From Malacoraja senta (lineage: Eukaryota): a DNA stretch of 64,000 nucleotides. Below are positions 23,941 through 29,902 of this stretch, one piece after another. Each line of letters begins with the position of its first letter. The first letter of the stretch is position 1. The DNA lies in contig CM075992.1 in NCBI GenBank assembly GCA_038087875.1, forward strand, positions 6,698,001 through 6,762,000, written 5' to 3'. Under the pieces are notes generated by a model that made no database searches, was not told the origin of the DNA, and was given only the letters and a program-made list of their open reading frames with translations. The position numbers were made by a program, and so were the translations under genes.

Positions 23941-24207
23941 CTTACTGCCTATTGTGCCTCCTGGCATGTAGAGCATATTTGCTGTTTCCATAACATATTT
24001 GTTTTACGAGACAGCACAGAGTTGTTAGCCCTGTGTTCAACCTCCAACCTGGAGGACCAGTGGATCGCTCTTTGTCTCGCCTCTACCCTTCGACCTGTCC
24101 AGCATGAGAGATGCTAACAGGAGACGAATCTCCCGCTGGCATAGCTCTAGGGGTCACTGAAACACACAAGCTCCCCGACCACGACAAGGTTGCAATCCAA
24201 CGGGGAG
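23941..24207 (-). mobile_element. Short internally deleted RTE-like retroelement
   Basis: 14-bp TSD GAGTTCATAAATTA at 23927-23940 and 24208-24221; minus-strand 5' end CCTTGTCGTGG...GAGCTATGCC resembles RTE 5' UTRs; ends in a GTAAG(TAA) tail. Confidence 0.7.
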
Positions 24208-27813: not shown

Positions 27814-28420
27814 GTGCGTGGATGCGGAGTCTGGTTGCTGATTATCGAGAGGCGTGTAAAGAGATCGTAGTGGGGGCAAGGGATAATCCGTGGAAGGCAT
27901 CCCTTTACTGCCTCCTGCTGGGGGGGCTACCACCTGCGCCTACTACAACCCCTCCGAAAAATCCTTCCAGGAGTCTCTGTTGGAGTCCTCCAACCAGCTT
28001 CTGGTGCTGTCACCCTTGGTCCGTAGTTGCCACGCAGACCGGCACATCCAGAAGCTGGTGACAATTAAAACCCAGGGCCGTCTCCGGCATGTGAGTTTGG
28101 GTGTCTTCTCCCTGGTGTACACGGCCCCCTACGACCCGGACACCAGCATCTACGGCGCGCATTGCGAGTACCTGAGGCCAAGATGGTCGGACTTTCCAGA
28201 CCGGGTTTTAGACCTGGGCTTCCTCGGCAAATGGTGGGTGCTCGTCTCCAAGATGAAAGACTGGGACATCAATGACGACGAGTTTGCCCACCTCCCTGCT
28301 GAGCTGCGGACCGTCACACCACAGAACCTCCACTCGGCTGAGAACGAGAGACTGTTTGAATTAAAGTTCCAGCCTATCATTCTCCGCGAGGAGGACATGC
28401 AGGAGGGGGAAGGAAGCTGA
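27814..28420 (+). CDS. TIMM29: TIMM29 coding exon 2, with apparent -1 frameshift at G7 run 27920-27926
   Basis: Acceptor ctcctgcag|; (G)AWMRSLVADYREACKE...LYCLLLGG continues in another frame as ATTCAYYNPSE...LDLGFLGKWW...DINDDEFAHLP...ENERLF...; matches TIMM29 motifs; adding one G gives a 252-aa ORF. Confidence 0.93.
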
Positions 28421-28807
28421 CGGGCACTGCTCACTGCCATACCACGCCACGAAGAATACAACTCAACACCTCTAATATAGACCAGGACAATGCAGAAACA
28501 GGCCTTTCAGCCCAATGTGTCTGTGCCAACCATGATGCCACTCTAATTAATCCAGGTTCCTGCATGTGGAGTGTGTCTCTCTATTCCAGCCTGTGCATGT
28601 GTCTGTCGAAATGTTGTTGCCCACTTCCTCTCAACCCATTCTTGGTTGGTTAAACTTGGCACTGCTATAAATGGTTTAAAAATAAACAGTTCTATAATTA
28701 AGACATCATGCCGTGATGTTTAGTTTTAGTTTAGTTTCGTTTATTTTAGAGATACAGCGCAGAAACAGGCCCTTCGGCTCACCGAGTCTGCACCAACCAG
28801 TAATCCC

Positions 28808-29143
28808 AGCACAGATGGCGCAATAGGCTAAGTGTTCGGCTGGCAACCGGAAGGTAGCCGGTTCGAATCCCGCTTGGAGTGCATACTGTCGTTGTGTCCT
28901 TGGGCAAGACACTTCACCCACCTTTGCCTGCGTGTGAATGTGTGTGAATGATTGGTGGTGGTCGGAGGGGCCGTAGGCGCAGATTAGCAGCCACGCTTCC
29001 GTCAGTCTGCCCCAGGGCAGCTGTGGCTACAGAAGTAGCTCACCACCACCGAGTGTGACTGAGGAGTGAATGAATAATGCGATGTAAAGCGCCTTGAGTA
29101 TTAGAAAGGCGCTATATAAATCCCATCCATTATTATTATTATT
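28808..29143 (+). mobile_element. tRNA-derived CORE-type SINE with L2-like tail, nested in a V-SINE
   Basis: A/B boxes (TGGCGCAATAGG; GGTTCGAATCC); core GTGTCCTTGGGCAAGACACTT; tail GTAAAGCGCCTTGAG...AAAGGCGCTATATAAAT plus (ATT)n. Confidence 0.85.
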
Positions 29144-29159
29144 ATCCTACACACACTAG

Positions 29160-29213
29160 GGGGTGGGAGATTGCAACCTTAACTTGGTCCACTCTGTTTC
29201 AACGAATGCAATC
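29160..29213 (+). ncRNA. HDV-like ribozyme fold (L3 degenerate in this copy) at the 5' end of a short retroelement (about 29160-29320)
   Basis: P1 GGGGTGG/CCACTCT with G1-U wobble, P2 GATTGCA/TGCAATC, P3 ACC/GGT, 7-nt L3, J4/2 C-GAA; element ends in an (AAG)n-like tail. Confidence 0.75.
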
Positions 29214-29902
29214 AACCCGACGTGCACAAACAAGATCACACAGAGCAAGTTGACCTGCAACTTGAGGCTGTGCACGCCATACGCAAGAAGAAGTAGAAGA
29301 CACGTAATAGGGACAATTTTACATTTACACCAAGCCAATTAACCTACAAACATGCACATCTTTGGAGTGTGGGAGGAAACCGAAGCATTCGGAGAAAATC
29401 CACACAGGTCACAGGGAGAAGGTACTAACTCCGTATAGATAGCTCCCGTAGTCAGGATCGAAGCCGGGTCTCTGTAAAGCAGCAACTCTACCGCTGCGCC
29501 ACCATGTGGTGTGAACCCTTTTTTGCTGTCAGGTTTGATGCAGGAACAAGTTACCACAGCAGTGAAATACTGGACCTGAGATTCTCCTTTCTCAATGTGA
29601 GCTCTGCACCTCCAGGTAACGTGGGTTTGGAATCCCTGGCCTTCAACAGCGCAGCATCTCCTTACTGGGCCAGTGAAGTACCAGTCTGGTGTTGCTGCCT
29701 CGGATAGAGGTGGGGACTGGAGCTGGGGTCCTTGCGGGTGAGAAGGGCTGCCCTGGGTCGCTGCCCTGAATCAAGGCCATAACTCCCAGTTGAGTTTTCC
29801 GTCTGGGATTCACCATTCGTGCATTGCTGAGCAGGCAATAGCCACGTCCTCTGGAAGTGATGCCTGTGCTGACGAGTGAACAAAATGGGGCATTTCTCTG
29901 AA

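Follow-up and report, generated by a model that had tools for sequence, protein, structure and literature searches.

A decayed 140-bp retroelement with a predicted HDV-like ribozyme head downstream of TIMM29 in Malacoraja senta, its probable Vingi-type partner LINE and a likely Vingi origin of the CPEB3 ribozyme

Non-autonomous LINE derivatives headed by a ribozyme are an element type that is already known. In trypanosomes, the short elements NARTc and RIME share with the LINEs L1Tc and ingi an HDV-like 5' end (L1TcRz/Pr77) whose cleavage site lies at +1 (PMC3383444, PMC4035085, PMC3185411), and the R2 SIDEs of Drosophila combine a ribozyme with the 3' end of their LINE through internal deletion (PMC3414825). 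Bipartite derivatives are also known for Vingi, a type of LINE with a single ORF coding for endonuclease and reverse transcriptase (RT) and, unlike Ingi, no RNase H (PMC13708176). These are the internal-deletion derivatives of Vingi-1_EE (Kojima 2011 as cited in PMC5786205), in which a compact LINE with one ORF and no RNase H has been reduced to its two ends. The ribozyme-bearing clades listed in PMC5786205 are six others, Vingi not being among them. Within the open literature covered, we found nothing tying Vingi to a ribozyme or CPEB3 to Vingi; prior notice in subscription papers, Repbase reports or patents is possible.

The stretch of DNA analysed here (64,000 nt of Malacoraja senta, called the window below) contains what is very probably a decayed non-autonomous retrotransposon of 140 bp, assembled from the 5' and 3' ends of a Vingi-type LINE, with a 54-base HDV-like head that is predicted to be self-cleaving when intact and is likely dead in this copy. 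The arrangement is that of the Vingi-1_EE derivatives, and of NARTc and RIME in that a short element and a LINE have an HDV-like 5' end in common. It differs from the trypanosome elements in its vertebrate host, a partner without RNase H, a 54-nt head with minimal P4 and an (AAG)n tail. R2, from which the Drosophila SIDEs derive in a comparable way, is specific for rDNA and uses a restriction-like endonuclease, whereas the family described here is dispersed and its partner has an APE endonuclease. Two ribozymes outside such elements are also close. In the CPEB3 ribozyme and the family of the window element alike, the P1.1 G follows G1 at a spacing of 37 nt, G1 forms a wobble with U, L3 is identical, P1.1 is a single pair and J4/2 reads C-N-A-A (RF00622, PMC8233481), while the letters of P1, P2 and P3 differ and P4 is nearly absent in the window family; the former is moreover one intronic copy conserved in mammals and the latter an abundant repeat. 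The theta, or minimal HDV-like, ribozymes of gut phages likewise have an absent or vestigial P4 and measure about 54 nt, although they occur almost only in phages, beside tRNAs (PMC10879173), and not at the head of a vertebrate retroelement. The interest of the locus lies in the series of predicted Vingi ribozymes to which it belongs and in what that series may say about where the CPEB3 ribozyme came from. In addition, Vingi-1 with its native 5' UTR serves as a gene-insertion platform (PMC13708176), for the template design of which a self-cleaving Vingi 5' end would matter.

The features of the locus, in window coordinates, are as follows.

27887 to 28420, plus strand: last coding exon of TIMM29 (PF10171, E 1.1e-46), stop codon at 28418-28420
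28720 to 29500, no strand assigned: host, a common SINE carrying the element and a tRNA-headed SINE; limits approximate, from blast coverage and eight empty-site matches
29149 to 29159, plus strand: left target-site duplication, from empty-site copies of the host SINE
29160 to 29299, plus strand: the complete 140-bp non-autonomous element, derived by internal deletion from a probable Vingi-type LINE
29160 to 29213, plus strand: HDV-like nested double-pseudoknot head with minimal P4, 54 nt
29160-29166/29189-29195, plus strand: P1, with the G1-U wobble and a second G-U at 29162/29193
29169-29175/29207-29213, plus strand: P2, 7/7 Watson-Crick pairs
29176-29178/29186-29188, plus strand: P3, ACC/GGT
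29179 to 29185, plus strand: L3 loop, TTAACTT in this copy versus TTCACGT in the family
29197 to 29202, plus strand: minimal P4, 6 nt, preceded by G29196
29203 to 29206, plus strand: J4/2, candidate catalytic C29203 followed by GAA
29161 to 29233, plus strand: part derived from the partner 5' end, 93% identical to partner bases 2-74 (blastn against the full-length copy L171)
29234 to 29249, plus strand: short linker, 16 nt, without a separate blast match to the partner
29250 to 29299, plus strand: part derived from the partner 3' end (last codons, 18-nt 3' UTR) and (AAG)n tail
29300 to 29310, plus strand: right target-site duplication, decayed, 8/11 identical, missed by the automatic search for such duplications

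The helices, the loop and the candidate catalytic C had all been placed at these same positions in a preliminary description of the DNA, which also gave the element a length of ~165 bp. That length has to be reduced to 140 bp, the element ending at 29299, with 29300-29320 consisting of the decayed target duplication and host SINE. Positions 29250-29293 are 84% identical to the last 44 bases of the partner, and the end of the linker pairs with 29258-29263 to form a small hairpin. Relative to the family majority, the head has lost two letters of the HDV-like core, C29181>A removing P1.1 and G29184>T removing the L3 G; in addition, C29193>T turns a G-C pair into G-U, and there is a change in L4 at 29201. 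Seventeen of the 18 pairs are thus kept, P1.1 being the broken one. Because both the P1.1 C and the L3 G are gone, the window copy is probably inactive as a ribozyme, as had been proposed. It has no Rfam ribozyme match at E<=10, and when both strands of the 64-kb window were scanned with an HDV descriptor allowing at most one mismatch, nothing was found, not even the decayed copy. With a folding program that does not model pseudoknots its z is 0.43, i.e. within chance, and neither this copy nor a consensus-like one folds better than shuffled sequences. It is the family and its related families that lift the fold above chance, and not the window copy alone.

A DNA search of the 1.94-Gb genome assembly with the element returned 3,294 first-look candidates, and all 40 that were scored matched at 88-100%. 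A 20-base core has 1,566 exact genomic matches (control 0), and the full 54-nt head is present in 152 exact copies; from these counts we infer a family of several thousand copies. In 29 other fetched copies the alignment begins within the opening three bases of the element and runs to an (AAG)n end. Their L3 is mostly TTCACGT, the loop that had been anticipated as the consensus, in which both the C of P1.1 and the conserved G are present. The fetched loci contain 104 distinct heads, of which 81 are followed by the tail within 150 nt; target duplications flank 61 of these 81 (60 of them 10-17 bp long, against 0/81 in a mismatched-flank control), although the loci were picked by similarity or pattern rather than at random, so that such fractions may be biased. 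That copies would start at G1 had been put forward as a check, and the element start indeed falls within 1 nt of G1, the predicted cleavage site, in 50 of the 61 target-duplicated copies. Past base 7 of the head, recurrent variants are found mostly at J1/2, L4 and the free base of J4/2, or else preserve a wobble pair. Among the 81 tailed copies at least five junction variants can be distinguished (40 A/other, 20 E, 12 B, 7 C, 2 D), i.e. repeated internal deletions of one LINE.

An identity as a tRNA, 7SL or 5S SINE was considered and rejected, since there is no Pol III B-box in either the element or a consensus-like copy and no Rfam tRNA match at the element; this agrees with the earlier proposal that a Pol III head is lacking. 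The neighbouring tRNA-headed SINE (28809-29145) has a B-box and an (ATT)n tail, and is nested in the host SINE ~15 bp before the element. The host SINE itself we take to be HE1-like. Complementarity between the two ends (CGTGCACA with TGTGCACG) was also set aside: it is real in the short element, with a z of only about -1.6, and inconsistent across families, one of five comparisons falling under 5% of shuffles.

An autonomous partner sharing both ends had been predicted, and was found in the form of a ~3.1-kb LINE with a single endonuclease/RT ORF and no RNase H, which the window element matches at bases 2-74 and over the last 44 bases. It was reached through one of 30 position-ordered copies, a long one that continued into an endonuclease-like frame. 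A pattern taken from that long copy had 92 genomic matches, longer copies among them, and the 5' ORF region had 31. Twelve partner regions were fetched, five of them with the shared tail at the LINE end, and one copy, L171, is full length and bounded by a target duplication. Pfam recognises an APE endonuclease and an RT in the partner and no RNase H, a domain that was detected in the control, a Nimb-like LINE of the same genome. The database relatives are mostly ~1,000-aa endonuclease and RT proteins on ~3.2-kb contigs, the best (P0001, a single ORF of 1,019 aa) being 72% identical to the partner, and RNase H is absent from all 120 relatives listed out of 368 matches. All eight partner copies checked are broken, with longest open frames of 189-436 aa and pairwise identities of 90-96%, and the family is therefore probably no longer mobile. 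The short element retains just the two ends of the partner, lacks an ORF, and has target-site duplications and a tail, which are the properties of a bipartite non-autonomous LINE. In two partner copies (L169:373-1263, L171:266-395) the frame is open from the element start through the ribozyme into the ORF, and an in-frame ATG lies inside the 3' end of the ribozyme. Two other searches led elsewhere. Patterns with negated letters, placed at two presumed junctions, matched once and 17 times, in short or truncated copies and never in the partner, and the candidates from a genome search with PF14529 were two-ORF Nimb-like LINEs without the head. Such Nimb-like LINEs (L044, L046, L253 and related loci) are young, with many near-identical open frames of 1,273-1,277 aa.

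A genome search with the endonuclease of a relative gave at least 150 matches, from which 30 loci and 12 regions were fetched, and further Vingi-type families were recovered. Of seven autonomous families, six have an HDV-like head ahead of the ORF according to the descriptor, and the seventh has one by eye; many individual autonomous copies are 5'-truncated and hence headless. The majority sequence of the window family has all 18 pairs of the nested double pseudoknot (P1, P2, P3 and P1.1) and agrees with the HDV descriptor in the G1 wobble, the U..C-G of L3 and the candidate catalytic C opening J4/2. The Rfam match of the family to an HDV-type model is weak (14.2 bits, E 1.6). Across nine family majorities 152 of 162 positions are paired, compared with a mean of 114 and a maximum of 131 in shuffles; four of the nine families entered the count with two copies each, and the families are related, so these shuffle counts are not probabilities. 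In a MAFFT alignment of 11 heads, unfitted and spanning the nine families, 94.4% of the cells pair versus 69.7% when shuffled (0/500), and 40-49% in slid-partner controls; 13 of the 18 pairs vary on both sides, and in one family the P1.1 C-G has become U-A. The letters that are invariant across the nine majorities include the U and C of L3 and the C and final A of J4/2, and all of these except the final A are positions of the catalytic core (PMC6326823). J4/2 reads CUAA or CGAA, the majority CUAA differing at position 2 from the CRRA given in PMC6326823.

It could be argued that what the LINE passed on is a folded structure that binds protein or serves as an internal promoter, that the start at G1 results from transcription initiation or from the RT stopping at the pseudoknot, and that self-cleavage is absent or dispensable. 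A P4 of only 6 nt and a J1/2 of only 2 nt would fit this, as would the same 77 nt of L1Tc doubling as an internal promoter (PMC3383444). However, the catalytic letters are among those kept in the nine families, minimal ribozymes without P4 do cleave (PMC10879173), and heads of a sister family score as high as 64 bits against the model for a ribozyme of proven activity. Promoter and ribozyme roles are also compatible with each other. We therefore regard a head without a role for self-cleavage as improbable and prefer a ribozyme. An ingi- or RTE-clade partner in place of a Vingi one is still less probable. Both ribozymes and bipartite derivatives have been reported for those clades (PMC5786205), and the quick tree of the partner (28 rows) had no named reference; in it the partner falls among relatives without RNase H and apart from the long-branch Nimb-like row. 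The label "Vingi" comes from the architecture and from the likeness of a sister head to the published Vingi-2_Gav rather than from a phylogeny that includes named members of Vingi and Ingi. Against these clades, the partner lacks RNase H, which Vingi lacks and Ingi has (PMC13708176), its ~3.1 kb resemble the 3,128 bp of Vingi-2_Gav, and it groups with the family whose head resembles the Vingi-2_Gav 5' end. Of the affiliation "Vingi/ingi-like" in the preliminary description, the Vingi-type part is thus retained and the ingi-type part is not, given the single ORF and missing RNase H.

As to the neighbouring gene, the element lies on the same strand as TIMM29 and 740 nt past its stop, as described earlier, which might suggest that this copy acts on the TIMM29 transcript through 3' end formation or decay. 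This is the least credible of the alternatives. The copy has neither P1.1 nor the L3 G, it sits within nested SINE insertions, and it begins 479 nt beyond the AATAAA at 28681, the sole AATAAA or ATTAAA within 28421-29400. With a mutated core and this distance past the only poly(A) hexamer, regulation of TIMM29 is unlikely; no link of the element to the gene was found, and its position behind TIMM29 looks incidental.

For a ribozyme-headed derivative of a Vingi-type LINE, we infer a mechanism by analogy with L1Tc/NARTc (PMC3383444) and R2, involving Pol II, self-cleavage and target-primed reverse transcription. A source copy would be transcribed by Pol II, either by read-through from the host or from a weak internal promoter, and the ribozyme would cut immediately before G1, so that an RNA of unit length is released from the flanking sequence. 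The endonuclease/RT protein of the partner would then bind the shared 3' end and insert the element by target-primed reverse transcription, so that every full-length copy would carry the ribozyme along in place of the Pol III head of an ordinary SINE. The window copy would have been inserted in this way into another SINE behind TIMM29 and have mutated neutrally since.

The mammalian CPEB3 ribozyme is linked to memory. The 5' 74 nt of the gharial Vingi-2_Gav are printed in the supplement of PMC5786205, and the elephant CPEB3 ribozyme is given as the ancestral sequence in that of PMC8233481. Aligned by eye, the two are identical at 38 of 40 positions (2-41) and at 14 of 14 at the 3' end, which makes 52/54 outside the distal P4, where they differ. 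In the M. senta genome, RF00622 scored above its threshold of 35 bits at 39 of 59 places, with a best score of 64.2 bits, the 59 being those scored out of about 102,000 candidates; none of 14 prokaryote control genomes had a match over the threshold. Of 30 such places that were fetched, 12 are the 5' ends of one sister Vingi-type LINE family, and 10 of these 12 continue into an endonuclease ORF, one copy having a 975-aa endonuclease and RT frame without RNase H. The sister heads score 35-64 bits on RF00622. The sister family comprises L181-L191, L197, L200, L249 and L254, some with open frames of about 1,000 aa, and at the 5' junction of two loci (L225, L236) a portion of the ribozyme is repeated in tandem. 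The remaining RF00622 matches belong to short families, one of which has the letters of the CPEB3 P4 stem; this is an old family (L192, L194, L196, L202, L205) with a compensatory change in P2. The window family is itself only a distant relative of the CPEB3 ribozyme, RF00622 giving no match at E<=1 in the copy L023 and none at E<=10 in the window copy or the L171 head.

Since letters outside the catalytic core are identical too, the comparison of the Vingi heads and the CPEB3 ribozyme argues for descent rather than convergence, and the presence of the heads in many families of a non-mammal argues for the direction from Vingi to CPEB3. The four contigs that carry ZZ-domain exons of CPEB genes, of whichever member, contain none of the 59 scored places, which is weak evidence given the about 102,000 candidates. 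An origin of the CPEB3 ribozyme from a Vingi-type element appears likely. More broadly, we think there is a good chance that Vingi elements generally begin with an HDV-like ribozyme, that the CPEB3 ribozyme is a domesticated Vingi 5' end which entered a CPEB3 intron before the marsupial-placental split, and that the window family, with its almost P4-less 54 nt, is the minimal end of the series. The close matches among Vingi heads would give the CPEB3 ribozyme a concrete and testable origin. If this is true, vertebrate genomes carry hundreds of intact mobile ribozymes, and the outgroups missing from studies of CPEB3 ribozyme evolution are supplied.

Other ribozyme-like short elements were seen in the same genome. 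A TSD-bounded family of 136-177 bp (L201, L203, L207-L210) also has a 54-nt head with minimal P4, together with a tail similar to the one found in the L255/L257 LINE family. Target duplications are not clear in three short families and are clear in five of six copies of another. The window itself holds a second ribozyme-like short retroelement of 267 bp on the minus strand (24207-23941), presumably RTE-type, which is flanked by a perfect 14-bp target duplication and has one 91% copy, in L067. It starts exactly at a 7-bp P1 (24207-24201/24177-24171), the first base being C and not G, and continues with P3 ACC/GGT, a 7-nt L3 (TTGTCGT), a flipped G-C P1.1, a long P4, a C at 24074 and an 8-bp P2.
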